A DNA stretch of 54,288 nucleotides from an uncultured Ktedonobacterales bacterium (GTDB lineage Bacteria > Chloroflexota > Ktedonobacteria > Ktedonobacterales > Ktedonobacteraceae): positions 1 through 54,288 of the forward strand of contig CBJMBI010000001.1 of NCBI GenBank assembly GCA_966427955.1, in the 5' to 3' direction. The notes below the pieces were generated by a model. The model ran no database searches. It had not been told where the DNA came from and worked only from the letters and a program-made list of their open reading frames with translations. Every line of letters begins with the position of its first letter. Position 1 is the stretch's first letter. Shown piece after piece: positions 3,480 to 37,054 of this stretch. The translations under genes and the position numbers were made by a program.

Positions 3480-3627
3480 CAACAACAGTTGTTAGGGCTA
3501 TTGGTAGATTGAATCTAATAGCGAGAATTATTTTCTAACAACCTGGAATTTCGCCTATAGTAGTAGGTAACAACTGCGCTCCCAGGTAGCCCGTAAGGGG
3601 AGTGAAAGGAAAGTACCAAGGTTGTTA
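3480..3627. repeat. Cluster of TAACAAC(C) iteron/operator-like sites
   Basis: TAACAACC at 3536..3543 (+) and 3620..3627 (-). TAACAAC at 3568..3574 (+) and 3488..3494 (-), the last paired with CAACAAC at 3480..3486 as an inverted repeat. One further TAACAACC at 5138..5145 (-). Confidence 0.4.
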
Positions 3628-4750: not shown

Positions 4751-5044
4751 CTTTCTTGCGTTGGAGACCTATAGATCATGCTGACCGCTCTTCTCGGGCC
4801 GTACTTGGCCCTTCATTTGATGACTGCTCAGGCAGTGAAAACTCAAGTCCTGGATCAGCAGTTGGTCGTCAACGAAATGTATGATTCCGAGGCCAAATCC
4901 CGGGACCATCGCTCGCATTATGTGGTTCTTCAATGGCTCTACAGGCCGGCTCCCGGCTCAGAACCCGTTCCTTGCTAGATCAATCAGTGTGTTAAGGGAA
5001 AACCCCAAAGGTAAGTCTCACATTCCTTTTCGCACTGGCTCTTG

Positions 5045-6420: not shown

Positions 6421-6591
6421 ATGGCTAGTAAATTTGCTATTTGGAATCAAATGACGAATCGTTTCCTTAAGCCGGAATTCAGCAGTCGTGCTGAGGCAGA
6501 GTCCTATATGACGGAAAAGGGAATGCTTCACGGTTTGAATAAGAAATATCACATCATTAATTTTGGGGAAAATAAAGATTATGTACAATAG
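6421..6591 (+). CDS. Hypothetical protein
   Basis: ATG 6421 lies in the frame of track ORF 6406..6591, with GGAG 9 nt upstream. 56 aa. Confidence 0.45.
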   Translation: MASKFAIWNQMTNRFLKPEFSSRAEAESYMTEKGMLHGLNKKYHIINFGENKDYVQ

Positions 6592-6751
6592 TAACTACGA
6601 AGACAACTACGACGACATCAATGCCTTATTGCAAGAAATTGCACTTATGGCTGACAGCGTCCAAGTACACAACTGCTCAAAACTGTGTATTGGTAGTGGT
6701 GAAGATAATCAAGCGTTATTGTTTAAGGAAAACTACCACTATGGTGACTGA
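6581..6751 (+). CDS. Hypothetical acidic protein
   Basis: ATG 6581 lies within track ORF 6563..6751 (MYNSNYEDNYDD...). Confidence 0.4.
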   Translation: MYNSNYEDNYDDINALLQEIALMADSVQVHNCSKLCIGSGEDNQALLFKENYHYGD

Positions 6752-7571
6752 TACCCGTCCATTTCATAATGCCTTTAACACTTTTGAATATGTTTCAGAG
6801 GGCTTAACGAGGGCGATCACATTTCAAAAAAGAAAGCAGGGTGATTATTTCATGGTACCGAAGCTATCATATGGCGGAGGATTATATTTTCGTCTTAAAA
6901 TAGATATTAATGAAAATATCGATTTTCCTTATGGGGCAACACATTGCTGCGGGTGCCGGATTCTTAGCCACCTAAACGGTGGTTTTGCGGAAGAGATTCC
7001 TTTAGAAAGACAATATCAAGAGTTTGTTTCCACTTTGTGGAACCAGTTTGGAGCGTGTTATGCCTATTATTTTGTTCTTTCAAGTGAACAGCTGAAGAAT
7101 CACAATTCCGAACTGTCGTTGATTCGTTTCTTTATGGAAACAGGGGCGAAATGTCTCGATACTAGGCCAAATCGATATCACGCACCTAATGATATTAGTA
7201 TGTTTGTGTGGGATGGTTCCACGAATAACCCGAAACTAACTTCCCTTGTTGACTCGAATAATTATTACTACGAACCTAAATGGTGGGGTGAACTGGATGA
7301 TCACGAATATGCAAAATTTATGAGCCAACACCACGGACTAATCGATGATCGGAAAGAGTATTTCAAACACCAAGAAGAATTAAGAAACCAAGAAAAGGAT
7401 CGCCGCACAAATGAGGCCTGTCTTCAGGCCTTTTATGATGTAGAAAAATTAGAGACATTGTTGAGAAATTGGTCCAAAAGCGGATCGACCCGATCGTATT
7501 TATCGAAGACTATTCAAAAACTACCTAAACTTTTGAAGCAATATTTTGGAGATCTGGGATATGACGAATGA
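6741..7571 (+). CDS. Hypothetical protein (276 aa) with a CCG motif
   Basis: ATG 6741 lies within track ORF 6621..7571. Contains ATHCCGCRILSHLNGGF and FVLSSEQ...NDISMFVW, which resemble the motifs of ORF 8944..9399. Confidence 0.6.
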   Translation: MVTDTRPFHNAFNTFEYVSEGLTRAITFQKRKQGDYFMVPKLSYGGGLYFRLKIDINENIDFPYGATHCCGCRILSHLNGGFAEEIPLERQYQEFVSTLWNQFGACYAYYFVLSSEQLKNHNSELSLIRFFMETGAKCLDTRPNRYHAPNDISMFVWDGSTNNPKLTSLVDSNNYYYEPKWWGELDDHEYAKFMSQHHGLIDDRKEYFKHQEELRNQEKDRRTNEACLQAFYDVEKLETLLRNWSKSGSTRSYLSKTIQKLPKLLKQYFGDLGYDE

Positions 7572-7821
7572 TCAGAAATACCTCGATATATGGAACCGAA
7601 AGAATCAGACGCTATCAAATGGTTCGAAATTAATCCGAGTCTACGGAAATGTGTATGACTTCTTTCCAGGTCGATATGGATGGTCCACTCCTTGTCGGTT
7701 AAAGATTAACAAGCAAACAACTGGATTAACGGGAATTCGCTCCAAAGCAGCAACCTTAATTTCTGGAAATATCCCAAGTCCGGCATTACTGGATTTGATC
7801 CTCCAAGAGATGGTGATCTAA
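7561..7821 (+). CDS. Hypothetical protein
   Basis: ATG 7561 lies within track ORF 7546..7821 and overlaps the upstream stop. Confidence 0.5.
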   Translation: MTNDQKYLDIWNRKNQTLSNGSKLIRVYGNVYDFFPGRYGWSTPCRLKINKQTTGLTGIRSKAATLISGNIPSPALLDLILQEMVI

Positions 7822-8943: not shown

Positions 8944-9399
8944 ATGTCATCCGAAACGGTTTCTGCGCGGCTGGTGGGTGTATTTTGTTGTTGTGGGGTC
9001 AATGTTCTTGGTGATTTTGCCAATGAGGAACAAGACGATGATGTTTGGTCCGACTATGGCGACATTGAGTATTTTGAAGCATCGAGTAAGACAAGTCGAC
9101 AACGAGCATGGGAAAAACTTCTAGCAAAAGTTAGAAAATCTAACGACCCCAAGGAAGACACACAGTGGGTTAGAGGTCAATTTAACCAGAACTATAATGA
9201 TGAAGACAGGGAAAAATATAAGAAACCCTCAGTTGTCATTATGTTAAATTTTGTAAAACAAATTGGGATGGATAAGTTTGATTATCATGAATTCATGGAA
9301 GTAGTTGAAGCACAACCAGACGTCAAATTGGTGGCAGAATGGGTCAATTCGAATACAACGAATATAATTCGTACGTACATGTTGATGGGGAATGTTTAA
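8944..9399 (+). CDS. Hypothetical protein with a CCG motif (possible paralog of 6741..7571)
   Basis: 151 aa. Contains GVFCCCGVNVLGDFANE and VVIMLNFVKQ...NTTNIIRTYML. Confidence 0.55.
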   Translation: MSSETVSARLVGVFCCCGVNVLGDFANEEQDDDVWSDYGDIEYFEASSKTSRQRAWEKLLAKVRKSNDPKEDTQWVRGQFNQNYNDEDREKYKKPSVVIMLNFVKQIGMDKFDYHEFMEVVEAQPDVKLVAEWVNSNTTNIIRTYMLMGNV

Positions 9400-9401
9400 C
9401 T

Positions 9402-10088
9402 ATGATGAGTATGAATAATATGGATATGGAAAATAAGGTGTTGGTTCTTGGGCATGTGGGCATGGGTACAGGTGAAGTAGAGCCGTTTGACCAAGTCTTT
9501 AAGCAAGGAAAGCTGCTTCATAGAGATCCCAATGTTGATGGAATTGACGCGCTTGTAATTTGGGGTGGTGAAGATATCAGCCCCAGTCTATATAATGAGG
9601 AAACAAGTAAGTATACAGGGGCTTCCGATACACCATCTTATCGGGATCGAGTAGAAGTTGCGGCGGCACAAGCATGTATCGATGCCGGAATTCCGATTAT
9701 CGGTGTATGTCGTGGAGCACAATTGTTGTGTGCTCTGGCTGGAGGAAAATTAATCCAACATGTGAACCATCATACACGGGACCATTTTATTCGTACCAAC
9801 GACGGGCGACGGATCATGTCCTCCTCGGTACACCATCAAATGATGTACCCGTTTGATGTAGAACATGAATTGTTGGCTTGGTCGGATGTGCGTCAATCGA
9901 ATGTGTATATTGTTGGAGACGATTCGAATTTCGAAACGATGTATGATTATGAGGAACCTGAAGTTGTGTGGTTCCCGAAGATCAAAGGTTTGGCTATCCA
10001 AGGTCATCCGGAATTCCACATGAATCCGGAAATCGATCCCTTTGTACAGTATTGTATCGAACTGGTGAAGAAATATGTCGTGGCCTGA
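9402..10088 (+). CDS. Class-I glutamine amidotransferase-like / peptidase C26 (gamma-glutamyl hydrolase, PuuD-like)
   Basis: Nucleophile-elbow context IIGVCRGAQLL, and a His context AIQGHPEF. The start is chosen at ATG 9402 within track ORF 9339..10088. Confidence 0.8.
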   Translation: MMSMNNMDMENKVLVLGHVGMGTGEVEPFDQVFKQGKLLHRDPNVDGIDALVIWGGEDISPSLYNEETSKYTGASDTPSYRDRVEVAAAQACIDAGIPIIGVCRGAQLLCALAGGKLIQHVNHHTRDHFIRTNDGRRIMSSSVHHQMMYPFDVEHELLAWSDVRQSNVYIVGDDSNFETMYDYEEPEVVWFPKIKGLAIQGHPEFHMNPEIDPFVQYCIELVKKYVVA

Positions 10089-10140: not shown

Positions 10141-10911
10141 ATGTTGACAAATCTTGGTTGTGATCCGGAAGTGTTTCTTGTAGACAACACGGGTAAGTTT
10201 ATTTCGTCTGTTGGTCTTATTGGGGGTTCCAAAGATGCGCCGATGCCCATCGACGATCTGGGAAATGCGGTCCAGGAAGATAACGTGGCCGTCGAATTTA
10301 ACACTCCACCGTGCAGCACTAAGGAGATGTTCATTGAGAACATTCGAAAAAATAAGGAGTGGCTTGCCCAGAAAGCGAAGAGTTTGCAATTATCGGTGGC
10401 GATCACGCCGTCCGCGATTCTAGACGATGATCAATTGCAGACACGGGCCGCTCAAACATTCGGCTGTGAACCTGATTTCAATGCGTGGAAAGGTGGGCGT
10501 ATGAATCCCCGTCCTCGTGCAATGAACCCGAATCTTCGTTCGTGTGGTGGGCACATTCACATTGAATTGCCAGAGTTTGTAGACAAGTGTTTGGTTGTTC
10601 AATGGATGGATCTTTATGTTGGTTGTTTGATGTTGGAATTTGATGATGACACGGCGCGCAGGCAGCTCTATGGTCGGCCTGGGGCTTTTCGTCCTAAGTC
10701 CTATGGCGTGGAGTATCGCACAGTTTCGAATCGTTGGATTGAAGATGATGAAAAGATTTCGTGGATCTGGGATCAAACAGACAAGGCAGTAGATCAGGCA
10801 ATGATGGGCAGAACATTCACGGAAGAACAGGCCCAAAAGATTCAACAGTGTTTGAATACCAGTGACTTGAAGTTACTTGAAGAACTCAAGACGGAGTTTG
10901 AGTTGGTATGA
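10141..10911 (+). CDS. COOH-NH2 ligase, phage phiEco32-like type 2 (GCS2 / glutamine-synthetase-like amidoligase)
   Basis: Motifs GCDPEVFLV, RSCGGHIHIE and YGVEYRTVSNRW, recalled as characteristic of this phage amidoligase family. Confidence 0.7.
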   Translation: MLTNLGCDPEVFLVDNTGKFISSVGLIGGSKDAPMPIDDLGNAVQEDNVAVEFNTPPCSTKEMFIENIRKNKEWLAQKAKSLQLSVAITPSAILDDDQLQTRAAQTFGCEPDFNAWKGGRMNPRPRAMNPNLRSCGGHIHIELPEFVDKCLVVQWMDLYVGCLMLEFDDDTARRQLYGRPGAFRPKSYGVEYRTVSNRWIEDDEKISWIWDQTDKAVDQAMMGRTFTEEQAQKIQQCLNTSDLKLLEELKTEFELV

Positions 10912-11531
10912 ATAACGAACAAATCCTTAACGATTTTCGACGGCGTTATGAGTCAACATATGTTGGCTTGAAACTTCAAAAGGAAAATCGGGAAGTTCTT
11001 GCACATATTGACGTAATCAATTATCATCCCAGTAAGATTGGGATATTAGAGATTACAACCGAAGAATTTGGGAAGTTATCCCTGAATCTTGGGTCAAGCG
11101 GACACTCCTTAATCTTCCATTATCCTAAGACCGGGGTATTCCAATATGGAAGGGAAGCTTGTATTTTTACACGAGAACCTCGTCGACAATACAAACGTGG
11201 ATTGTGTCCGGATAATTCAAATCTTGTTAACACTACGGTAAGAGTATTCGGGAATCTAATTCCATTTAGATTTGCAGCTATTGCCGCCGCATTCAAGCAT
11301 CAAACGTATACTTTGCCGCAAGCATTAGCAATGCTGCAAAATGGTACAGCCCGTAGTGTTGCTTTAGAAAATGATTTTTCAATTTCATTATCACTAACTC
11401 GTGATAAGAAAACATATTTATTATGGTATTGCACCACCATTATTGGAGAATGTGATTCACAGGGAACATTACTTAATGTATTTGAACCGATTTATAAGCA
11501 GCAATTGGAACAATTAATTTACAGAATGTAA
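10908..11531 (+). CDS. Hypothetical protein embedded in the ligase operon
   Basis: 207 aa. ATGA overlap with the upstream ligase. No motif recognised. Confidence 0.6.
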   Translation: MNNEQILNDFRRRYESTYVGLKLQKENREVLAHIDVINYHPSKIGILEITTEEFGKLSLNLGSSGHSLIFHYPKTGVFQYGREACIFTREPRRQYKRGLCPDNSNLVNTTVRVFGNLIPFRFAAIAAAFKHQTYTLPQALAMLQNGTARSVALENDFSISLSLTRDKKTYLLWYCTTIIGECDSQGTLLNVFEPIYKQQLEQLIYRM

Positions 11532-11540
11532 AGTCCTATT

Positions 11541-12437
11541 ATGACAACACCATTGGCTATCTGGGGATTAAAAGCTGTAAAGGCAATTGCGCCGGCGCAA
11601 CGGTTTCTTTCTCCGAAAAATATTCAACTACCTGTGATTGACTCGTCTCAAGTCCTGGGTATTGAGGTTGAAGTTGAAAATCAGTCTGTCATAGAAGGTG
11701 CGGAAATTTCGCGGATTTGGACTATCAAAGATGACGGGTCACTACGGAACAATGGTGCAGAGTGGGTTTCCGCTCCAATGATGGCATCATATGTCCCGGC
11801 AGCGATTCATAATCTTTTTTCGCAACTATCGCCTGATTGCTGTTTCGGTCCACGTACCAGCATCCATGTGCATTTAAATATGCAAGATTGGGAAGAGGAA
11901 CAGATTCAGAATTTGGTTCTCTGGTATTGTGTGTTTGAGAGAATTTTTTATCGATTCACGGGTCGACATCGGCAAGAGAATATTTATTGTGTTCCTTTAT
12001 TGGATACAAACCTCTTAGCTCATCTTAAATCCTATTCGATTTCGAGTTGGGTCGACCGCTGGTCAAAATACACCGGATTGAATTTGATTCCTCTCACAAA
12101 TTACGGGACGATTGAATTCCGGCATATGCATGGTACTTTTAAAACCGAAAAGATTTGTGTGTGGGTGCGAATCTTATGTCGGTTGTGTGAGTTTGTGAAG
12201 AACCATACTCCTGAGTACCATCAAAGTACCTTAATGAGTTTGGATTCAAATAGCAGTGAACTCTCAAATATTTTCAATGAGATTTTTAAAGAAGAGCTAT
12301 CATATTTGAAGACAGTAAATTTAGGAGAAGACACAGTAGAACCTATTCTACGAATGAAATCGGCATTCACTCCAGAGCCGATTCCCCGTCAAGTAGATGT
12401 TGATTTTCGGATTAGTCCTTATATTTTGTTTAAATAA
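11541..12437 (+). CDS. Putative amidoligase (Amidoligase_2-like)
   Basis: Motifs LGIEVEVEN, DGSLRNNGAEWVS, SIHVHLN and YGTIEFRHMHGT. Confidence 0.7.
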   Translation: MTTPLAIWGLKAVKAIAPAQRFLSPKNIQLPVIDSSQVLGIEVEVENQSVIEGAEISRIWTIKDDGSLRNNGAEWVSAPMMASYVPAAIHNLFSQLSPDCCFGPRTSIHVHLNMQDWEEEQIQNLVLWYCVFERIFYRFTGRHRQENIYCVPLLDTNLLAHLKSYSISSWVDRWSKYTGLNLIPLTNYGTIEFRHMHGTFKTEKICVWVRILCRLCEFVKNHTPEYHQSTLMSLDSNSSELSNIFNEIFKEELSYLKTVNLGEDTVEPILRMKSAFTPEPIPRQVDVDFRISPYILFK

Positions 12438-12451
12438 CAGGTACAAAAATT

Positions 12452-14119
12452 ATGTGTGGTATTGTTGGCCTAATTAATCGAACCAAACAAAATTTCACAA
12501 CTCGTGATACTGAGTTACTTGAACAACTGCTTATCGTAGATTCACTGCGTGGGAAAGATTCGGTGGGTGTTTTTAATACCTATCGTAATAACCAAGTAGA
12601 AGCAATCAAACTCGGTAGTAATGTGTTTAATCTACTTCGCTGTCACGAGTGGGCACCGTTCAAAGAACGTATCCAAAAACGGGCTCGCTTTGTGATTGGG
12701 CACAATCGTGCGGCAACTCGTGGATCAGTTACTACAGAGAATGCCCATCCCTTTGCTGAAGATAATATCATGCTGGTCCATAATGGTACGTTATGGAACC
12801 ATGAGGTTTTGACCACTAAGAATTTTGAAGTGGATAGCCAAGCCATTGCACATGCTTTGTCCCAATCCACTCCTGAGAAAGTTCTCCCGTCGTTAATGGG
12901 AGCATTTGCCTTGGTTTGGTACGACACCACAAAGAAAAAGTTGTTCGCAATCAGAAATAAAGAACGTCCGCTTTGCTTGATCCGGACCCGGGAAATGTAT
13001 GTAATCTCATCGGAACCTGCAATCGCTGCTGTTCCAATTACTCGACAAGATCGTAAGATTGAATCGATTGATGAAATTCCGCCGTGGACTTTATTTGAAT
13101 TCTCTATGGATGGGGAGCTTCAAACCCGTGAGATTGAGGAATACGTAACTCGTGTGTATCACTCGAATCATCACTACCACGGAAATAAGTATATGGACTC
13201 GATTCACGAAGCCATCCATGAAATGGACGAAGATAATACGGCTGGATGGGGTACTGATTGTTGTGGTGATGTAACCGATGATCAAGTGGGAGGTATGGTT
13301 GACGCCCCTTTTGTCGAAGAGGGTTCGACGGGAACGAAGACTTGCGCCCTGACATCGCCCTCAAAAAACAACGACAGCGACAAAAACGCGACTGGAATTA
13401 AAAAGTCGGTACAAGATTTAGATGCCCAAGCATTTAATAACACGCGACAATTACATGTCGCTCATGAAACATTACAACGTGGGCGATTGGTGTTATTCAA
13501 GGTAATTGAAATTCGTCCAAATGAAGTATCCGGGCAACGACAATTTAGAGGTAAACTGCACGAAGCTGGCGAACTATTGTATGATGTAGTTGGTTGTTTC
13601 CCAGAAGGAACAACCTTAAAAGAACTAGAAGCACAGTGGTTGGGTAAGTATTGCATGGGCCGAGTGCATTATGTAACTGAATCAATCGGCGGGATTAGTG
13701 CTTATCTGGTGAATACCCATTTGGCTACGATGACCACTTGTTTTGGTAATCAACGTATCCCGCTGGCTGCGTGGAGCATAGCATTGTCAAAATGCAAATG
13801 TTATAAATGTAACGCCACCATTAAGGGACTGGATAAAGATTTTACACAGATTAATGTCCGTAATTTACTGGAGAATTCGTCCACTGATCCACGTAATGAT
13901 ATCCAGGTAATGTGTGCAGATTGTATTGAGAATACATTAACAAAACAACTAAAAGAGGAATTCATTGAAAAACGCAACGACGTCTGGCAAAGGGCGGGCT
14001 ACGGTAGCCCGTACCCCAATCGTAATTCTTCCGTACAAACAGGAGAGCAGGTCGGCAAAGGCACTAGCACAACGAATGGAAAGTCTATTGAACTACCGGG
14101 TTCGGAGACGATCCAGTGA
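12452..14119 (+). CDS. Class-II (Ntn) glutamine amidotransferase domain fused to an unassigned Cys-rich C-terminal half
   Basis: N-terminus MCGIVG (Cys nucleophile), then GHNRAATRG, HPF and HNGTLWN. The C-terminal ~300 aa are unknown and contain CKCYKC...CADC. Confidence 0.8.
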   Translation: MCGIVGLINRTKQNFTTRDTELLEQLLIVDSLRGKDSVGVFNTYRNNQVEAIKLGSNVFNLLRCHEWAPFKERIQKRARFVIGHNRAATRGSVTTENAHPFAEDNIMLVHNGTLWNHEVLTTKNFEVDSQAIAHALSQSTPEKVLPSLMGAFALVWYDTTKKKLFAIRNKERPLCLIRTREMYVISSEPAIAAVPITRQDRKIESIDEIPPWTLFEFSMDGELQTREIEEYVTRVYHSNHHYHGNKYMDSIHEAIHEMDEDNTAGWGTDCCGDVTDDQVGGMVDAPFVEEGSTGTKTCALTSPSKNNDSDKNATGIKKSVQDLDAQAFNNTRQLHVAHETLQRGRLVLFKVIEIRPNEVSGQRQFRGKLHEAGELLYDVVGCFPEGTTLKELEAQWLGKYCMGRVHYVTESIGGISAYLVNTHLATMTTCFGNQRIPLAAWSIALSKCKCYKCNATIKGLDKDFTQINVRNLLENSSTDPRNDIQVMCADCIENTLTKQLKEEFIEKRNDVWQRAGYGSPYPNRNSSVQTGEQVGKGTSTTNGKSIELPGSETIQ

Positions 14120-14798
14120 ACGTACCGATTTTGAAGCCAAGTCTTGGCACCAGTTTATTAATTGGGGAAGTAGCCGGACTATCAACACAAAGACCAATTT
14201 AGTTATCAATCCGCCAGAAGTTGTGCAACGGGCAGGTAATAAACTGCTGACGTTTCAAGCTTTACAAAATAAAGAAGGGATTAATATCCCAGAGTTTACA
14301 ACGGATCGGGGTGTTGCAAGTGGATGGATTGGAACTGGTAAATCTACTGTTGTTTGTCGTACTAAGTTGTCTGGTCATAGTGGTGACGGTATTGTTCTTG
14401 CATCTACGGAAGATCAAATTGTTGATGCTCCATTGTATGTCAAGTATGTTAAAAAGCAGAGAGAGTTCCGAATCCACGTCAGTTTTGGAGAAGTGATTGA
14501 TGTTCAAGAGAAACGAAAACGTCGGGATTTGCCGGAGGAGTTTTCGACAAACTTTCAGGTGCGTAATCATCACACCGGATGGGTCTATTGTCGTGAAAAC
14601 GTGGAACTCTCGGAAGATGCAACAAGAATGGCTGTTGAGGCTTGCCGACAATTGGGACTCGATTTTGGTGCTGTTGACATCATCTATAACGCCAGACAAA
14701 ACTTGTATTACGTGTTGGAAGTTAACACCGCACCGGGCCTTGAAGGAACAACCGTTGACAAATATGCTGAATCTTTTGTAAAGAAATTATCCTTATGA
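13965..14798 (+). CDS. ATP-grasp ligase (RimK/LysX-like)
   Basis: TTG start with AAGAGGA 5 nt upstream. Contains INWGSS, KLSGHSGDGIVL, YVKKQREFRIHV and YYVLEVNTAPGL. Overlaps the upstream gene by 155 nt in another frame. Confidence 0.75.
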   Translation: MKNATTSGKGRATVARTPIVILPYKQESRSAKALAQRMESLLNYRVRRRSSERTDFEAKSWHQFINWGSSRTINTKTNLVINPPEVVQRAGNKLLTFQALQNKEGINIPEFTTDRGVASGWIGTGKSTVVCRTKLSGHSGDGIVLASTEDQIVDAPLYVKYVKKQREFRIHVSFGEVIDVQEKRKRRDLPEEFSTNFQVRNHHTGWVYCRENVELSEDATRMAVEACRQLGLDFGAVDIIYNARQNLYYVLEVNTAPGLEGTTVDKYAESFVKKLSL

Positions 14799-15337
14799 AA
14801 AAAGTTCTAGGTGATATCTGGATCGAAGAGATTCCAGAGAATGGGGAAATTCATTGTGGATTTGTCCAGCAATTCATAGATGAAAACTTAGCAGAATGTT
14901 TTCACATTGTTCCAGCAGACATTGCCAAAACTCATAAAGAAAATCCGATGTTGGTCGTCGAAACTAATACCGGATTGCAGAGTATTAATGCACCAATTGA
15001 TGGTCATATTCTGTTCTTTAATGACAAAGCCCGGGATTTTCCGGAACAGTTAGTTGAAGAGGATGTGGTACTCGGTATCCTGACGATTGAGGAATATAAA
15101 AAACGAAGGGCGACTGTTCCAGCAAAACCGGCACTGGGACCAGCACCGACGCTAAATGATGAGGGTCTCCAGGCTCTTATTAATGGTCAACTAAGGAACC
15201 TACGGGTTAATATAATGCCACCAGTGCGGCCGGCTGCTCCCCGAGGATGGAATTGGGATCCGCAACTGGAGGAAGTAGAGGCGAATAATCGCAATCTGTG
15301 GCCCGATGACGCTGACGATAATGACAACGAAGAATAA
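14795..15337 (+). CDS. GcvH-like (lipoyl/biotinyl-type barrel) protein that lacks the swinging-arm lysine, with a Pro-rich linker and an acidic C-terminal tail
   Basis: VVETNTGLQSINAPIDGHILFFNDKARDFPEQLV aligns by eye with the GcvH segment [33 protein letters not shown] (K replaced by T). The C-terminus is ...DDADDNDNEE. ATGA overlap with the ATP-grasp gene. Confidence 0.45.
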   Translation: MKKVLGDIWIEEIPENGEIHCGFVQQFIDENLAECFHIVPADIAKTHKENPMLVVETNTGLQSINAPIDGHILFFNDKARDFPEQLVEEDVVLGILTIEEYKKRRATVPAKPALGPAPTLNDEGLQALINGQLRNLRVNIMPPVRPAAPRGWNWDPQLEEVEANNRNLWPDDADDNDNEE

Positions 15338-15366
15338 TTACTACTATAACAATAACGAGAGTTTTG

Positions 15367-15621
15367 ATGCGATGCTTAAGCTGTAATCGTCGATTGAATG
15401 ACAAGGAAGCTACACGTAAATACAGTAACAGTGGGGAATATATTGATCTTTGTGATCGTTGTTTCGGTTACATTGCTGATGATGTTCCTGATGTTGACGA
15501 ACCACTAGGGAGTAGTGTCTACGATGATATTGATGATGGCGCTGGCGGTGAACTGGTGGGACGCGACAGTGAAATCGATGGCTTCTACGGAGAAACAGGA
15601 GACAGTAATGAGCAGTGGTAA
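15367..15621 (+). CDS. Zinc-ribbon protein with a strongly acidic C-terminal half
   Basis: MRCLSCNRRL...CDRC, then DDVPDVDEPLGSSVYDDIDDGAGGE...GDSNEQW. GAGAG box 7 nt upstream. Confidence 0.55.
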   Translation: MRCLSCNRRLNDKEATRKYSNSGEYIDLCDRCFGYIADDVPDVDEPLGSSVYDDIDDGAGGELVGRDSEIDGFYGETGDSNEQW

Positions 15622-16669: not shown

Positions 16670-16863
16670 TTCTATCTTCGGAAAAGGAACGTCTTCTTTG
16701 TTATTCGGCAGGTATTCTTGGTAGTATGTTATCTGCCCGTAATGAAAATGAATCCACTGTCCATGATTGGATGGTACGTCGTAGTATCAAAGCAGCAAAT
16801 AAACTCATCTCTCTAATTGGGGATGATGTTAGATTACAAGAGATCCTAAATGAAAATCTATAA
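16660..16863 (+). CDS. Hypothetical protein
   Basis: 67 aa, overlapping its neighbours on both sides. Confidence 0.45.
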   Translation: MSVILSSEKERLLCYSAGILGSMLSARNENESTVHDWMVRRSIKAANKLISLIGDDVRLQEILNENL

Positions 16864-17560
16864 TGCAGTTTGTCAAATTCTTGCTGTAGCTCTTTGTGTG
16901 TTCGCAACTGGTTGTGGTTATTTAGCTTTAACAACACCGGAACCAGCAGCCTTACTTGAATCAAATCTACAGAATGTTGTATCTGTAACGACAGATAGTG
17001 GTTATTGTAGTGGGTGGGTAAAGACCGATACTCATGAGATTGTTACTGCTGCTCATTGTGGTGATGGGACCTCCTCTCAGATCTTTGATGTAGATTTTGG
17101 GGATGGAGTTAAACATCACTTTCACATTAAATATCTTGGAGATGAGTCCTTAACTGCCGCGACTGATATCATGGTGTTGTACACTACGAGTGAAGAGCAG
17201 CACAAGATTAAATGGCCTAAGGGGTTTAATCTTTGTAACTTTAAACCGTACTACGGGGAAGAAGTGGAACTCTATGGCGGACCTCTCGGCCGAGCGAAGA
17301 GTATTTTCTTCGGGCGGATTGGTAATCCCGACGTAGATATTTCAGCAATGCTTGGGAAAGCACCATTCACATCTCATATGGTAGAGTATGATGGTGAAAT
17401 GTTCCCTGGTAACAGTGGCGGTCCTGCGATTGATATTAGACACAATTGTGTTATGGGATCAGCAGAAGTTGTGCAACGAGAAGATCACGGTCTTGGGACT
17501 AGTTCTTGGGGAGTGAACTTCTTTATTCCCGGTAGTGATATTGAAAAGGTGGTTGTATGA
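16850..17560 (+). CDS. Trypsin-like (S1) serine protease with a lipoprotein-type signal peptide
   Basis: Triad contexts VTAAHCGDG, TDIMVL and PGNSGGPA. The N-terminus MKIYNAVCQILAVALCVFATGCGY carries a lipobox-like ATGC. Confidence 0.8.
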   Translation: MKIYNAVCQILAVALCVFATGCGYLALTTPEPAALLESNLQNVVSVTTDSGYCSGWVKTDTHEIVTAAHCGDGTSSQIFDVDFGDGVKHHFHIKYLGDESLTAATDIMVLYTTSEEQHKIKWPKGFNLCNFKPYYGEEVELYGGPLGRAKSIFFGRIGNPDVDISAMLGKAPFTSHMVEYDGEMFPGNSGGPAIDIRHNCVMGSAEVVQREDHGLGTSSWGVNFFIPGSDIEKVVV

Positions 17561-19196: not shown

Positions 19197-19640
19197 ATGA
19201 AAGAATTATTTGAAGAATTAAGACAAGAATTAATTTACTATCCTGAATCGGGTGTGTTCTTTTGGGTACACCCGAAGAAAGGTAGACCCCTTGATATTGA
19301 AGCAGGTACTACCAATATCTATGGATACAGAATTATTACTTACAATAATCATAAGATATCTTGTAATAAACTTGCTTGGTATTTTATGACTGGAGAATAT
19401 CCTGAATTCTTAATTGGACCGAAGGATGGTAATCCCTCTAATTTAAAATGGGATAATCTTATTCGAACTACTCGGGCTGAAATACAACACGCTTTTCGTA
19501 AGAAAGGAGAAGAACTTAATAAAAAGGTAATTCCTAGTAAACCAGTTAAACATGCTACCTTTAGTAATAAACAAGTAAAAGAAGCAGTAGAAGAGTATAT
19601 TAAGCTGCAAGAGCTTCAACGCAGCGCTGAGCGCAGCTAA
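19197..19640 (+). CDS. HNH_3-type homing-endonuclease-like protein with a degenerate catalytic motif
   Basis: LIYYPESGVFFWV...GYRIITYNNHKISCNKLAWYFMTGEYP...IGPKDGNPSNLKWDNLIRTTRAE fits the HNH_3 layout, but the usual DH(I/V)DGN is GPKDGN here. The coding sequence is very AT-rich. Confidence 0.6.
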   Translation: MKELFEELRQELIYYPESGVFFWVHPKKGRPLDIEAGTTNIYGYRIITYNNHKISCNKLAWYFMTGEYPEFLIGPKDGNPSNLKWDNLIRTTRAEIQHAFRKKGEELNKKVIPSKPVKHATFSNKQVKEAVEEYIKLQELQRSAERS

Positions 19641-21606: not shown

Positions 21607-22285
21607 TTTAATTACGGTTCTTGATTATGGACATATCCGTCTTGTTGAGCACATGGGTAGTGATCTTTCCATTGTTCGGAATGCTCGCGTTAGCTATGAT
21701 GCGGAGTGGAGAACAGGAGAAGATGCCGGAAAGGATGAGAAGCTTATCCGGTACTTGTTGAACAATAAGCACACCAGTCCTTTTGAATCGGTGACCTTTA
21801 CCTTTGATATTAAAGCACCGATCTTTGTGGTGCGTCAATGGCAACGTCACCGTACGTGGTCATTCAATGAAATCTCAGGACGATACGCTGAACTACCGGA
21901 GGAGTATTACACTCCACAAATTGGAGATATTACTACACAGCACAGTTCTAATAAACAGATGCGTACTGATGAGGTACATCCAGATGCCGCCGAGTGGCAA
22001 CTGCTGATGTATCAGACTTGTCAAAATGCATTTTATGTTTATCATGAAATGTTAGAAGCCGGAGTACCCCGTGAGTTAGCACGAAGTGTATTACCTCTTA
22101 GTACATATACACATATGTTTGCTACTGTGGATCTTCACAATCTGATGCATTTTCTGCGACTTCGATTGCACGAGCATGCACAGAAAGAGATTCGGGTATA
22201 TGCACAAGCTATCCTGGATCTAATTGAACCTATTGTACCGGTAACATTGAATGCCTTCAAAGAATCTCTTGGCGCTGGATACTGA
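21599..22285 (+). CDS. thyX: FAD-dependent thymidylate synthase ThyX
   Basis: ThyX signature QRHRTWSFNEISGRY. The start is ATG 21599 (MSNLITVLDYGHIRLVEHMG). Confidence 0.9.
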   Translation: MSNLITVLDYGHIRLVEHMGSDLSIVRNARVSYDAEWRTGEDAGKDEKLIRYLLNNKHTSPFESVTFTFDIKAPIFVVRQWQRHRTWSFNEISGRYAELPEEYYTPQIGDITTQHSSNKQMRTDEVHPDAAEWQLLMYQTCQNAFYVYHEMLEAGVPRELARSVLPLSTYTHMFATVDLHNLMHFLRLRLHEHAQKEIRVYAQAILDLIEPIVPVTLNAFKESLGAGY

Positions 22286-23396
22286 AAATAATATTTGGAA
22301 CAATGGAAACCCCTTCGACCGACGATTTAAAAATGTATGCTTTAGTTGGGCAGATTCAAGTAGCTCTGGAGCAAGTAAGACAGACTCGGATTCAATTGCT
22401 TGGCTTACGGAACGAATTAGAGGGGCTTCATGTCTCATTGGTTTCAATGCGAAGTATGATTGCCATGTCCTCCGGAAACTCGGAATCATAGAGCACCTAG
22501 AAAAGGAGTGGTGGGATTGTCAAATCGCCGAATTCATCCTAAGCAATCAAACGTGGAGGTATCCGAGTCTAGACGAGAGTTGTCTGAATCGTGGCCTTGG
22601 CTCGAAGCTGGATGTTGTGGCAAACGAGTATTGGGCAAAAGGCATTCAGACGGAGGATGTTCCTTGGGAGGTTTTGTCCGCTTATGCCGAGATGGATGCC
22701 CAACTTACTTTAAAGCTTTACGAGAAGCAGCAGGAAGTCATGTCTCCCACACAAAAGAGACTGTGTCGTCTTCAGTGCATGGACATGATGGTACTGGAGG
22801 AGATGGAGTGGAACGGGATTAAGTTTGACCAAGAACTCTGTGAGAAACGCGCTGCGGAACTTGAGGAAAAAATACAAGAAATCACAAATGAACTTTCTGG
22901 AGTATATCCTGGGATACCTATTAATTTTGGTAGTGGGGACCATCTGTCTGCCTTTCTATATGGTGGAGTGGTTAAAGAGGAAACTAAAGAACACATAGGA
23001 TTCTTTAAGACCGGAGAACGTAGTGGACAACCTAAATACAAGAATGTAATTGTTGAACATGAATTGCCACGATTAGTTGAACCACTAAAGGGAAGTGAGT
23101 TAAAGAAAGAGGGATATTTTGCTACAAATGCCGATACTCTTCTTAAACTTAAACCACGTGGTAAGACAAAACATATTGTTGAATTGATCCAGAAACAAAC
23201 TCGATTGGATAGTTTATTAACGAAAACCTATCGAGGAATTACCAAAGCAAATGAGACAGGTAATTGGAATCCAGGAATGTTGCACGGACAATTCAATCAA
23301 TGTGTAGCACAAACAGGTCGTCTTAGTTCTAGTAATCCAAATCTCCAGAACTTAGATGGTGAAGCACAAGATATTTTTATTTCAAGGTTTGAATAA
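22251..23396 (+). CDS. Family-A DNA polymerase, part 1 (3'-5' exonuclease domain plus fingers, ending just before motif A)
   Basis: Exo motifs LALDTENN, NAKYDCHVL and YAEMDAQLT. Pre-motif-A QTGRLSSSNPNLQNL. The ORF then ends ...DIFISRFE-TAA. Confidence 0.9.
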   Translation: MPSKNLLALDTENNIWNNGNPFDRRFKNVCFSWADSSSSGASKTDSDSIAWLTERIRGASCLIGFNAKYDCHVLRKLGIIEHLEKEWWDCQIAEFILSNQTWRYPSLDESCLNRGLGSKLDVVANEYWAKGIQTEDVPWEVLSAYAEMDAQLTLKLYEKQQEVMSPTQKRLCRLQCMDMMVLEEMEWNGIKFDQELCEKRAAELEEKIQEITNELSGVYPGIPINFGSGDHLSAFLYGGVVKEETKEHIGFFKTGERSGQPKYKNVIVEHELPRLVEPLKGSELKKEGYFATNADTLLKLKPRGKTKHIVELIQKQTRLDSLLTKTYRGITKANETGNWNPGMLHGQFNQCVAQTGRLSSSNPNLQNLDGEAQDIFISRFE

Positions 23397-23571: not shown

Positions 23572-23730
23572 ATGTCCGAATCGGAAGTGCTTGATAAGAT
23601 TTTGGAAGCTTTTGTGGGTGATGAGTATACGTCAGGGTGGGATACACTGGCGGAATTTCTTAATCACATTGGAAATGATGAAGCAGTATTAATGCTGCAC
23701 CAAGCTATTCATAAATACTTTGGAGACTGA
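23572..23730 (+). CDS. 52-aa micro-protein between the polymerase halves
   Basis: MSESEVLDKILEAFVGDEYTSGWDTLAEFLNHIGNDEAVLMLHQAIHKYFGD. Its TGA overlaps the ATG of pol part 2 (TGATG). Confidence 0.45.
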   Translation: MSESEVLDKILEAFVGDEYTSGWDTLAEFLNHIGNDEAVLMLHQAIHKYFGD

Positions 23731-24458
23731 TGCCTCTTGTTGCATGTGATGCAAGTCAACTCGAATGGCGGACAATATTGCAATTGTCCCAGGACCAAGT
23801 CGGGATCGCGGAGGTTGTTGAAGGCCAAGATACACACTCGCTTAATGAAAAAGCCTTCTCCCTTCCTTCTCGCCTTATTGCAAAGATCTACTTATTTCGT
23901 ACCATCTTCCGGGGTTCTGGATATGCATTCTCTGTTGATCCCGCCTTCATGCATGTATCCTCAGATCCAAAATATTGGGATGCTGTCGGAGAGAAGTTCT
24001 ATGCTAAATATTACGGGATCGATGCTCAACACAAATACTGGTGGGAAGTGGTGCAGCGAGGAGATCCAATCGTCGGTCCGACAGGTCGGCAGTGGACAAT
24101 CAATATTGGGAGAGATCGTTGGGGCAATCTCAAGATTCCTTGGACGACATTAACAAACTATCCAGTGCAGGGTACTGGTGCCGACGTGATGATGATTGCT
24201 CGCATCTCGTTCCACCGAAGATTGAAGGCGGCTGGTATTCCAGTTCTACTGGTCAGTACGGTACACGACTCAATCGTGGTAGATACACCGAGTATGTATG
24301 TGGATCATGTGGTGGAACTTATGTATTCTGTCTTCGACGATCTGGTGATTAACATTAACCGGACCTTTAAATGTGGGTGGAATGTTCCACTTGGATGTGA
24401 AGTGAAGGTGGGGCCAGATATGTTAAACATGAAGAAGGTAGATCGAAATGGCGTATGA
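23730..24458 (+). CDS. Family-A DNA polymerase, part 2 (motifs A, B and C)
   Basis: Begins with motif A, LVACDASQLEWR. Motif B-like SRLIAKIYLFRTIFRGSG. Motif C STVHDSIVVD. Confidence 0.9.
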   Translation: MPLVACDASQLEWRTILQLSQDQVGIAEVVEGQDTHSLNEKAFSLPSRLIAKIYLFRTIFRGSGYAFSVDPAFMHVSSDPKYWDAVGEKFYAKYYGIDAQHKYWWEVVQRGDPIVGPTGRQWTINIGRDRWGNLKIPWTTLTNYPVQGTGADVMMIARISFHRRLKAAGIPVLLVSTVHDSIVVDTPSMYVDHVVELMYSVFDDLVININRTFKCGWNVPLGCEVKVGPDMLNMKKVDRNGV

Positions 24459-35300: not shown

Positions 35301-37054
35301 GTTTTCTGGGCATCTTCCAATCGACCTTCCAGCGTACGTCGAGATTTACCCGGTTGCATAGATGCTATTTGAGCTTGTAGAGCATCTACTCGTCCTTGAT
35401 TTGCCTTTACTGTGAGCTGCTCATTCACTTTTCGTTCAAGAATCGAATCGTTAACTGCCTTAGCAAAGTTCTTGGCAATAGTCGGACGATCGAATAAACC
35501 ACCTTGACGATCACTCACAGTATCTAGATATTTATCGTAGGCTTGATCCCGATCTTCAGGAACTTCAAATGCTGTCTCAGGACGACTAGCAAGGTTATCC
35601 ATTGTTTGATCAAACTCTTCACGAGACAAGGTCCGGGGTTCTTCATCAGGACCATACTGATCATACCGTCGTTGATCTAGATCATTAAACAGATCTCCTT
35701 GTACAGGTTCATTATTGAATTCTTGAACCCGACGTTCCATCTCGTCTTTGAATGGACGGATGGCCTCCATCTCAGACATAGGTGCTGCTTCACCTTCTTG
35801 ATTGACAGCAATCGGTTCATTAGGCCCAACTCGATCATTACCATTCTCAAAATCAAGTTCCATCTGCCGCAAGTTACGTCCTTGTTGGATGGGAACTTGT
35901 TCCTCCACTGGAGCTTCTTCAACAGGTTTACCCGGACCAAATGCACCATTCTGTTGATCAGCCCTGTTCATCATCTCTTCAAAAGAAGAGGTGGGTTCAT
36001 CAGCCGGACCTCGCATATCTTGTAACTTTTGAGCAGCTAATTCGGCTTCGCCCGCACCACCGGCTTTACCAGTCACGTGGGCTAATGATCCTGCTACTGG
36101 AGCTGTCAGCAGTAGACCTTGTTCAAGGTTAGTGATGTCTTTTACATCTTGTGCATTAATAGCTTTATCATACCCCGTTTGATTGGCAATACCTTGGGCC
36201 AGATACGGAGCTAATTTATTCGGAACGGTATTGAATGCAAAATCCAAAGCTTTTTGCGGTAACTGATACCCCTGAGTCTCATGTAATGCTGAGGTGTCTA
36301 CACCAGCTTTATTTAAAAGGTTCTCCGGACTAAATTGAGAGAACTCTTGCTGACCCGATTGAACAGCATTACCAAGAGCTTCACTGAGACCTTGTCCGTT
36401 GGCAAGATTCTCGACACCGTGAAGAGCAGTGCTAATACCAATCGGTAAGGCTTCTAGAGCACCCCCCGCAAAGTTAGCTGCTTGCATTCCCAAACCTTTC
36501 AGACTGTCCCAATTAGATGGGGATTTCGGTGCATCCTCCCAACTACCAGATTGTGCTTCTTGAGTGGGTTGTTGAGTAGGGGCGTCTTCCCATCCATTAC
36601 TCGACGAAGGACTATCAACATTATTACTATTCGTCTTGGCAGCGAAGTTCGATACGTAATTCTTAGTTTCCGTATTGTCTGGAGTAGCTCGACCACTATT
36701 ATATAAACTCAATGCGCCATTGACATCTCCGTTGGTTCGTTGAAGATTTTGCTCCATTAAGTAGCGATGGATGAACAATGAATCGTTAACATTGTGGGGA
36801 TCTAGTTTACGGCCCGTTTGCTGTTCGATAGCCCGGAGAGTGGCTGGCATAACCTGTGCCATACCTGTAGCACCCTTAGGGCCGACAGCATTTGGATTAT
36901 ACTTGGACTCGATTCCTAATTGCGCAGCAGTGCCTCCCGAAGGCCACTTGGGATATCGGGATTGAATATCGGCGTCACTTACAGCCATTGCTGTTTGAAG
37001 TGGAAGCGCCCCTTGCGGGGCGTCTTCCCAACCACCATTGTCATTAGTTGCCAT
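32336..37054 (-). CDS. Giant internal virion / ejection protein with an N-terminal SLT lytic transglycosylase domain (T7 gp16-like role)
   Basis: 1572 aa. LGIESKYNPNAVGPKGATGMAQVMPAT ... LSLYNSG. Confidence 0.85.
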   Translation of the reverse strand: MATNDNGGWEDAPQGALPLQTAMAVSDADIQSRYPKWPSGGTAAQLGIESKYNPNAVGPKGATGMAQVMPATLRAIEQQTGRKLDPHNVNDSLFIHRYLMEQNLQRTNGDVNGALSLYNSGRATPDNTETKNYVSNFAAKTNSNNVDSPSSSNGWEDAPTQQPTQEAQSGSWEDAPKSPSNWDSLKGLGMQAANFAGGALEALPIGISTALHGVENLANGQGLSEALGNAVQSGQQEFSQFSPENLLNKAGVDTSALHETQGYQLPQKALDFAFNTVPNKLAPYLAQGIANQTGYDKAINAQDVKDITNLEQGLLLTAPVAGSLAHVTGKAGGAGEAELAAQKLQDMRGPADEPTSSFEEMMNRADQQNGAFGPGKPVEEAPVEEQVPIQQGRNLRQMELDFENGNDRVGPNEPIAVNQEGEAAPMSEMEAIRPFKDEMERRVQEFNNEPVQGDLFNDLDQRRYDQYGPDEEPRTLSREEFDQTMDNLASRPETAFEVPEDRDQAYDKYLDTVSDRQGGLFDRPTIAKNFAKAVNDSILERKVNEQLTVKANQGRVDALQAQIASMQPGKSRRTLEGRLEDAQKTLEKSKENITKFFQGSMDSVAAKVHPFDKDGVIEMNMGLKPPQWLMDGIGRMLKAFHGIVFKQLSRMISKPSTIDSTAKIIKSGIADAINKQANKNWEVQKNGNAVDRIQGGNSPLGKFDAIKEWIPDDRPYEEVKQDFQQAPDMDSNMLTKNVAQGGLWASTISKSPVVKWAYTKISGAQKMIDYQVKQLLTDKSNGLQAKMRALNDSEKGEIYALMDLNEGEKRFTEGELRAKGFNEKQIDYYKTHFDVMDKILGQVNDARNKIGLPAIDPRIAYMSSRFVGDFRSLVYQKGTGRIVGFVGHDNRWMLNQIIKHIDEQNPGKYDFEKPTLNRPDNQHPQNMFQGYMNALDLLSKTDSDVKGILDSYRSYLTNDAAKMLGALKHAKDKEGIFGAEGKKAWENQKTNAVNGMQSQLKYAENMIKWSNLQDAAHEVKQMLVDPDVDKPNAKSYVNDYLNNAIGHTASPLRDAMNGILNGIANATGMGPSYFRGLNNFQKSALLQMWLGFFRIPHSMLTLTQFFQSNPQFARMVKARGIDDVHFWSSTLKGTNTSLNLMKAFVRNGDTSHLNPTEKAIWNYNKTNAVFAVNLKNHLEDISRSPIKRIIDNTVEANVIYPELALRAVTFSTWTHALVDAGMEMKDALGTAENFTRGAMVDYRPIERPLVYGKMGFMGDIASTLTRFKMNQLSQHIYFGKNAIKEGQITPLMVMLGTSIAFAGASGMLGFNWANELYRQFSTHIVGKPDSLKGVFLRNLPDWANYGMFSQLGINMQGSYSNADIIPDNPWATLFPTGSTLAGMAGSMIDLARNRDKATLKQVLYNYSPTSLKGVEENYMFSKDAGNGNKEFHRPGSDELQSIRTNNPNNPFDLTTDTGKRNFAFHPFTEARNYDVAAEAKNTANDYAYLRERDLKKFTDILQNRQPTQDELHQLQQDWVSHRGTGQDLANAITKWQTERHETQMQRARGVNPNTLSDMYRVLDINAMKGEKK

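Follow-up and report, generated by a model that had tools for sequence, protein, structure and literature searches.

The GcvH-like gene and its upstream neighbor

We analyzed a stretch of DNA of 54,288 nucleotides (nt), hereafter the window (contig CBJMBI010000001.1 of assembly GCA_966427955.1, from an uncultured Ktedonobacterales bacterium), which looks like a podovirus genome of ~54 kb. The gene studied here is an open reading frame (ORF) at 14795..15337 on the + strand, as are its sub-features and the ligase-cluster genes described below. It encodes a protein of 180 amino acids (aa) with the fold of the glycine cleavage system H protein, GcvH, but without the lysine that bears lipoate in that protein, and it belongs to a family of at least 155 cluster representatives. 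It opens with the first ATG to follow a stop codon, and the N-terminus of its product (MK...IW) lines up with the starts of the homologs. A RimK-like ATP-grasp ligase is encoded directly upstream at 13965..14798 (Pfam RimK, 36.7 bits against a cut-off of 21; phrog_2599, E value 6e-80). The initial annotation of this DNA had claimed that the two genes overlap, and the ATG of the GcvH-like gene does overlap the TGA of the ATP-grasp ORF, the junction reading ...TTATCCTT-ATGA-AAAAAG. Because overlaps of 1–10 nt are frequent elsewhere in the window (10908/10911, 17557/17560, 16660/16669), this one says little by itself. A promoter and terminator scan gave sites no commoner than in shuffled sequences, and none between the gene and its neighbors.

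The gene can be divided into four parts. Residues 1–108 (14795..15118) form a barrel with a C-terminal helix, modeled with a predicted local distance difference test (pLDDT) score of 93–98; it is this part that the family conserves, and homologs without a tail consist of the barrel only. It is followed by a flexible linker rich in Lys, Ala and Pro at about residues 98–121 (15086..15157), recognized from the composition of the family's tails and from the alignment of the family profile with the linkers of E2p. A predicted amphipathic helix, semi-conserved in the family, spans residues 122–137 (15158..15205; pLDDT ~72–86). Last comes an aromatic-acidic C-terminal motif, NLWPDDADDNDNEE, at residues 167–180 (15293..15334), which is specific to a clade and is not found family-wide. 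A Pro/Ala-rich linker leading to an acidic terminus (...DDADDNDNEE) is thus present as the initial annotation had described it.

The protein has the GcvH fold and lacks the lipoyl-lysine

The likeness to GcvH had been proposed from an alignment made by eye. BLASTP against E. coli GcvH reproduced it (residues 54–84 against 60–90, 12/31 identical, E value 9e-5 in a single comparison), with Thr59 opposite the lipoyl-lysine. Taken alone, the 180-aa protein scored 13.1 bits against Pfam GCV_H (PF01597), below the cut-off (GA 22.2), and 17.8 bits against TIGR00527, below the threshold of 115.85. A profile built from 146 homologs matched the solved GcvH structures 2ka7/1zko over nearly their full length (E value 5e-6), and hhalign against E. 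coli GcvH gave a probability of 94.3% (E value 1e-7, 84 columns). GCV_H was matched singly by 134 of the 146 family members and Pfam Biotin_lipoyl by 18.

AlphaFold2 run from the single sequence gave a pLDDT of 36, and a model built from the family alignment was used instead; in this model pLDDT was 96–98 across residues 1–100. The initial annotation had suggested comparing a predicted structure with GcvH and biotinyl domains. A Foldseek search of the PDB with the model returned GcvH or GcvH-L for all of the top 22 matches (E values 2e-5 to 4e-4, probability 1.00). A fold search of BFVD with the same model found no viral structural relative. Together, the profile match, the hhalign comparison and the model bear out the GcvH-like barrel, and the likeness is far beyond chance.

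Thr59 occupies the lipoyl-lysine column of GcvH in the alignments and lies at the tip of a β-hairpin, between strands 51–57 and 60–66 of the model. The four codons at the tip, E56-T57-N58-T59 (14960..14971), are the counterpart of the E-S-V-K lipoylation motif of GcvH, as the alignments, a column census and the model all indicate. The censuses of columns and tails were made over 172 members of the family. In none of these is the column occupied by Lys, so the missing prosthetic-group lysine noticed at first sight in this one protein is a property of the whole family. Asp stands there in 128 members, Glu in 26 and Thr in 6, so that 154/172 have an acidic residue. The rest of the hairpin is strongly conserved as E-T-N-D (E56 in 172/172, T57 in 153, N58 in 151), although lipoylation is impossible, and the tail-less distant members retain E-G-S-D/E. 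Beyond the hairpin, G22, P67 and P83 are invariant like E56, and W9, C35, H37, P51, G70, A79 and F82 are nearly so. Conservation in the family is confined to residues 1–97. Whether position 59 is acidic shows no correlation with the acidic class of tail.

A phage-only family found mostly in metagenomes

The family was revealed only by an exhaustive HMMER scan. A word-indexed homolog search and tblastn of the 180-aa protein against 50,697 phage genomes gave no match. The family motif was unmatched in 185,579 bacterial and archaeal species (one genome each); it was found in 10 contigs from IMG/VR and 19 from metagenomes. The family is therefore phage-only and almost wholly metagenomic, and it is a real, previously unstudied family with the GcvH fold. 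Among the 50,697 isolated phage genomes its sole carrier is Alcaligenes phage vB_Af_QDWS535, whose member is a divergent, tail-less protein of 94 aa that has been left unannotated (6788..7072 of locus L001, or ~35401–35685 of OK172329.1, minus strand). This ORF overlaps the stop codon of an ATP-grasp gene, and the next ORF, encoding a Zn-ribbon protein (L001 7075..7275), is likewise unannotated. Some metagenomic members (P0004, P0151, P0152) carry the IMG label "glycine cleavage system H lipoate-binding protein", which is likely to propagate. As no member has the lipoyl-lysine, this label is functionally misleading.

The gene tracks the ligase and not the Zn-ribbon gene

A RimK-like ATP-grasp gene lies just upstream of the GcvH-like gene in 28/28 unique loci with room upstream and in 4/4 deep-branching members, that is, in 32/32. 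The distance between the two genes runs from -53 to +733 nt and is 31–733 nt in 16/28 loci. In about half of the related loci an ORF of ~50 aa stands between them (for example L005 4804–4971, L007 ~4800–4974 and L004 ~3490–3611); the window has none. On the other side, the GcvH-like gene is always within 41 nt of a downstream Zn-ribbon gene (median gap -1), a tighter spacing than that to the ATP-grasp gene. In the window this neighbor, a small Zn-ribbon protein with an acidic tail, is encoded at 15364..15621 on the + strand. At one locus (L058) an HNH gene takes the place of the Zn-ribbon gene, and the overlap with the ATP-grasp gene is kept.

Given that the Zn-ribbon gene is always so close, membership of the replication module had to be considered. 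We took 62 Zn-ribbon loci with at least 1.5 kb of upstream sequence and looked for an ATP-grasp gene within 4 kb upstream. Neither an ATP-grasp nor a GcvH-like gene was present in 42 of them, an ATP-grasp gene alone in 13, and both genes in seven; a GcvH-like gene without an ATP-grasp gene was seen in none. The GcvH-like gene thus occurs in 7/20 loci with the ligase and in 0/42 without it (Fisher p = 1.6e-4, for loci that are not phylogenetically independent), which argues that it tracks the ligase and not the Zn-ribbon gene. In the 13 loci with the ATP-grasp gene alone, the gap to the Zn-ribbon gene was -1 to 13 nt in five and 119–1782 nt in the rest, with no GcvH-like gene in between, suggesting that the GcvH-like gene is an insertion tied to the ligase side. 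It is the accessory of one sub-lineage, whose ATP-grasp proteins are ~50% or more identical to that of the window. The initial annotation had put the protein forward as a dedicated partner of the neighboring ligases, tagged at its C-terminal Glu. The partnership is well matched by the unbroken association with the ATP-grasp gene; the tagging is not, since the tail is unconserved.

The ligase and the amidoligase cluster

The only relatives of the ATP-grasp protein in the PDB by sequence are RimK enzymes (E value ~3e-5). Against NCBIfam it matched TIGR00768 (rimK_fam) with an E value of 1e-17, at 64 bits against a cut-off of 143, and NF007764 at 32 against 331 bits. The MptN, S6-Glu ligase, LysX and CofF models were also matched, all below their cut-offs; the LysX match (TIGR02144) was partial and weak, with 1.7e-6 over 50 residues. 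By sequence comparison, its nearest characterized relatives are the RimK-family alpha-L-glutamate ligases. The TTG start at 13965 would make the ORF overlap the preceding gene by 155 nt. Alignments with homologs set in at about residue 16, which puts the probable true start ~15 codons past this TTG.

The ATP-grasp gene closes an amidoligase cluster of the phiEco32 type. Upstream of it, Pfam and PHROG matches identified a C26 or class-I glutamine amidotransferase (GATase) at 9339–10088, followed by a COOH-NH2 ligase type 2 (10141–10911), a protein of phrog_11055 (10908–11531), an Amidoligase_2 protein (11541–12437) and a class-II GATase with a long C-terminal extension (12452–14119), the gene that the TTG start would overlap. 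The extension, of ~340 aa, has Cys-rich motifs (CKCYKCN...CADC) and no family match. Gene order is the same in L001, L021 and L022. In phiEco32-like contigs of ~77 kb the ATP-grasp protein is longer, at 398–415 aa (L015 3995–5191, L016 3995–5242, L019 3995–5212), and continues into a strongly acidic linker (...EEVEEEFAESADDENFAL...) and a fused C-terminal domain of ~70 aa. This domain had no Pfam match and no similarity to the GcvH-like family.

The phiEco32-type cluster was reportedly described computationally by Iyer et al. in 2009. Papers that cite that work treat the phage cluster as a predicted cell-wall or peptide-modification system (PMC10580990; also PMC4431377). Neither of these two papers mentions a GcvH-like component; Iyer et al. 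2009 itself lies outside this comparison.

Proposed role of the GcvH-like protein

The conserved unit that is linked to the ligase is the barrel, and this led us to a reading in which the protein acts through it. We tentatively propose, with slightly less than even confidence, that the gene product serves the phage module of RimK-like ATP-grasp and amidoligases as a dedicated accessory, with a GcvH fold that cannot be lipoylated. Its functional core would be the barrel of ~100 residues, presenting a hairpin with the invariant E56 and usually an Asp or Glu at the position of the lipoyl-lysine. From the constancy of the gene neighborhood we infer a physical or functional coupling, such that the barrel would either dock on the neighboring ligase or be its substrate. 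By analogy, the nearest logic may be that of BCCP presented to biotin carboxylase, or of a lipoyl domain that shuttles among its enzymes. With their many Ala, Pro, Gln and Arg residues, the linker and tail would then serve as a flexible, lineage-variable extension with short linear motifs.

Several observations weigh against this proposal. In most phages the cluster does without the protein: an ATP-grasp gene is carried by 313 phage records, and a GcvH-like gene by only one of these. The barrel was in no case found fused to a ligase, all matches to the family being of 265 aa or less. The protein of the window itself, with Thr59, and ~10% of the members have no acidic residue at position 59. 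Finally, the evidence for coupling is gene neighborhood within one phage lineage, and the counts are for that reason inflated by shared ancestry.

The conserved hairpin also allows a different function. The side chain of E56 or of D/E59 might be amidated by one of the three carboxylate-amine ligases of the cluster, creating a synthetic swinging arm or a tethered intermediate for the GATases and ligases. The reversal of charge from Lys to Asp or Glu in most members fits such a carrier, as do the conservation of E-T-N-D and its retention as E-G-S-D/E in tail-less distant members. The ATP-grasp, GCS2-like and GS-like ligases of the cluster all activate carboxylates, and a carrier domain followed by an Ala/Pro linker is the architecture of E2 and BCCP. 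However, the non-acidic residue 59 of the window's protein and of about a tenth of the family speaks against this role too, and since ordinary GcvH likewise conserves a Glu at the position of E56 (E-S-V-K), this residue may be simply inherited. On balance we regard hairpin amidation as unlikely. We also hold improbable the stronger statement that the barrel is a new protein carrier, in which the RimK-like, GCS2-like and GS-like ligases would amidate the carboxylate hairpin and a glutamyl-peptide-type moiety would be built or borne on an Ala/Pro-tethered swinging domain.

The C-terminal tail is variable

The initial annotation had placed the modification at an S6-like C-terminal Glu and had asked whether homologs keep an acidic terminus ending in -EE. 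They do not. Two acidic residues stand at the C-terminal end in only 9/172 members (~5%). The commonest last residues are Arg (48, often as RRPR), Phe (39, of which 20 as [DE]x?F) and Glu (15). Over the last ten residues, 41 members are net basic, 39 net acidic and 92 mixed. Five lineages (L001, L006, L075, L103, L135; 83–106 aa) have no tail at all; they are still found downstream of the ATP-grasp gene and keep the hairpin Glu.

The tails are nevertheless non-random, although of several classes. Their composition is 13.6% Ala, 9.6% Pro, 8.2% Gln and 10.6% Arg. Columns 120–125, in the region of the tail helix, are filled in ~94/150 sequences, and similar helices rich in Arg, Gln, Ala and Leu occur in the tails of homologs. 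Within their final 40 residues, 27% of tails contain the aromatic-acidic pattern [WF].?[DEN][DE], compared with 9% after shuffling (z 8.4); for an RRPR-type terminus the figures are 9% and about 0%. The classes are broadly clade-specific, yet they recur, and close relatives may flip between them (...NNNNDEEE against ...NNNNNRGR). In the clade to which the window belongs, the linkers cannot be aligned, but the ends recur, as ...MQWDDGFEDVDDE, ...LDWRFENIDDDEE, ...LEWFDNPQVDNDEE, ...EAWLEDDAE and the ...NLWPDDADDNDNEE of the window, with termini that include ...DDDEE, ...DVDDE, ...DNDEE, ...NNDEEE and ...DDAE.

As neither the tail nor the ATGA overlap is conserved, tagging of the tail could be only a clade-specific addition. 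In its restricted form this explanation holds that, within the window's clade, the ATP-grasp enzyme extends the S6-mimicking ...NDNEE end, or loads it, at the terminal Glu, the protein being either a tagged substrate or a carrier like LysW. The RimK-family ligases to which the ATP-grasp protein is closest all act on a terminal Glu carboxylate, the clade is repeatedly acidic-ended despite its unalignable linkers, the aromatic-acidic motif is enriched near the C-terminus, and the C26 enzyme of the cluster, of the gamma-glutamyl-hydrolase type, could release a product. Against this stand the rarity of two acidic end residues among the many Arg-ended, Phe-ended and net basic tails, the flips between sister sequences, and the tail-less members. 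The GcvH-like protein has neither an EDWGE motif of the LysW type nor a Zn-ribbon, and nothing similar follows the ATP-grasp gene in the ~300 isolated phages that have the cluster. We therefore think C-terminal tagging doubtful even within the clade, though a clade-specific role for the acidic end is possible, as a docking site or even as a site of glutamylation. If the protein is an accessory acting through its barrel, the tail would probably serve to tether the barrel, or direct it, to a partner that varies, being aromatic-acidic, of the RRPR type or absent according to lineage.

In phages that have the ligase and no GcvH-like gene, no consistent small acidic-tailed protein was found after the ATP-grasp gene. 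Salinivibrio phage CW02 (L002) has three small paralogs at this position, gp13, gp14 and gp17 (6447–6692, 6689–6922 and 7442–7801), all of which end in ...LLEENV or ...LLEENA and have no Pfam matches. Their conserved acidic C-terminal motif might have an analogous role.

Downstream genes and two further explanations

The Zn-ribbon protein encoded after the GcvH-like gene belongs to a family with at least 544 IMG/VR loci, usually just upstream of the primase gene. Its consensus is MRCLxCNxxLxDxESTRKYxxSGxFVDLCxxCF (other examples are at L003 5251–5502 and L021 9642–9818), and the net charge of its tail is -7 to -14 in 24/25 sequences. It had no match to LysW, Pfam or the PDB. A LysW-like role for this neighbor was considered and rejected, given the absence of LysW similarity and the 42/62 loci at which no ATP-grasp gene is present; we assigned the Zn-ribbon gene to the replication module and not to the ligase module. 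It is followed on the + strand by genes for primase, a DnaB-type helicase, thymidylate synthase, a split family-A DNA polymerase, an exonuclease and ribonucleotide reductase. The polymerase is divided between ORFs at 22251..23396 and 23730..24458, ~330 nt apart, and is likewise split in L021 and L022. An HNH endonuclease gene (19197..19640) lies just upstream of the helicase gene. A trypsin-like protease (phrog_9683; 16850..17560, +) has an N-terminus (...LAVALCVFATGCGY) that resembles a lipoprotein signal peptide with a lipobox; the protein is conserved in the related contigs L004 (5887–6597), L005 (7063–7749) and L007 (7233–7928).

The protein might instead act on the host, independently of the cluster, as a mimic of apo-GcvH or of a lipoyl domain that blocks LplA, LipB or LipA, the P, T or L proteins of glycine cleavage, or E1 or E3. 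The fold and most of the core motifs of GcvH are retained, loss of the lysine is what a non-consumable mimic would need, and variable tails could reflect adaptation to different hosts. A decoy would leave the exclusive association with the ATP-grasp gene unexplained and would be expected to have spread among phages regardless of the cluster, and the family invariants C35, H37 and N81-F-P-D are not features of GcvH. We consider such a decoy very unlikely.

Least probable of all, with barely a slight chance of being right, is a part in replication alongside the acidic Zn-ribbon protein, primase and helicase, with acidic, Phe-ended tails like the C-termini of single-stranded DNA-binding protein (SSB) or T7 gp2.5: the tight spacing to the Zn-ribbon gene, the Phe-ended tails and the lack of a recognized SSB among the window ORFs scanned with PHROGs would suit it, but we rejected it on the 0/42 result, and the HNH gene at L058, a fold with no known DNA-binding role, and basic and tail-less variants that misfit an SSB-type tail also speak against it.

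Comparison with known systems

The phage proteins share their fold with GcvH (PF01597) and with GcvH-L of S. pyogenes (PDB 5a35) over the whole barrel and the C-terminal helix. Motifs in common with GcvH are the W of "HEW", G-x-T, the hairpin E-x-x-[K], S/A-P-x-x-G and N...P-x-L. Unlike GcvH, the phage family has an Asp or Glu as a rule in place of the lipoyl-lysine; it is set apart further by the invariant C35-W/F-H37, by N-F-P-D and by the long Ala/Pro-rich linker and tail. It occurs only in phages, beside a RimK-like ligase instead of gcvT/gcvP: the neighbors in all loci examined are genes of the amidoligase cluster and of replication, and no gcvT/P or lplA-type gene was matched among the window ORFs scanned, a scan that did not cover every ORF. 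Most members of the family, the protein of the window included, fall below the GcvH cut-offs of Pfam and TIGRFAM.

In E. coli E2p (7b9k), the family profile also aligned with all three lipoyl domains and with their Ala/Pro linkers. The phage protein resembles E2 and BCCP in that a flexible Ala/Pro-rich linker is joined to a barrel-sandwich-hybrid carrier domain. BCCP serves biotin carboxylase, an ATP-grasp enzyme encoded next to it, as a dedicated partner. The phage family differs in having no modifiable hairpin Lys (DKA or EAMKM in E2 and BCCP), and its partner ATP-grasp protein is RimK-like and is not a biotin carboxylase. Neither an E2 catalytic core nor a peripheral-subunit-binding domain was detected in family members.

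E. coli ribosomal protein S6 ends in ...DDAEAGDSEE. The ...DDADDNDNEE end of the window's protein is similar, and the neighboring enzyme is nearest to RimK; however, an -EE end is found in only about one in twenty of the phage proteins, the remainder of the protein is unrelated to S6, and the phage ATP-grasp protein falls below the equivalog cut-offs for rimK_fam and the S6 ligase. LysW and ArgW, with LysX and ArgX, are alike in concept, as small acidic carriers loaded at a terminal Glu by a RimK-family ATP-grasp enzyme. LysW is a Zn-ribbon protein with a conserved EDWGE end, whereas the phage protein, a GcvH barrel, lacks a Cys4 ribbon and has a non-conserved end. With the phiEco32-type cluster (PF14395, PF12224) the window shares both the set of genes and their order, namely C26 GATase, COOH-NH2 ligase type 2, Amidoligase_2, class-II GATase and ATP-grasp. 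Unlike the window, most phages with this cluster have no GcvH-like gene.

Implications for the amidoligase cluster

The cluster, with its ATP-grasp protein, two GS/GCS-like ligases and two glutamine amidotransferases, is present in hundreds of phages, whose hosts include Pseudomonas, Escherichia and Vibrio, and to our knowledge no substrate or product has been assigned to it since 2009. The GcvH-like protein gives the cluster a testable protein partner, one with the fold of a swinging-arm carrier, without the lysine of the arm, and tied to the RimK-like ligase. The analysis also corrects the automatic IMG annotation of some of these proteins as glycine cleavage H protein, and it identifies a culturable carrier, Alcaligenes phage vB_Af_QDWS535, whose member is suitable for genetics. 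Covalent modification of the barrel or the tail would make the protein a carrier or tagging system of a new type; without it, the protein would be a lineage-specific accessory subunit. Should the hairpin itself prove to be the carrier, the phage would encode an analogue of the lipoyl or biotinyl arm that is installed by enzymes, and this would reveal the product of the cluster.

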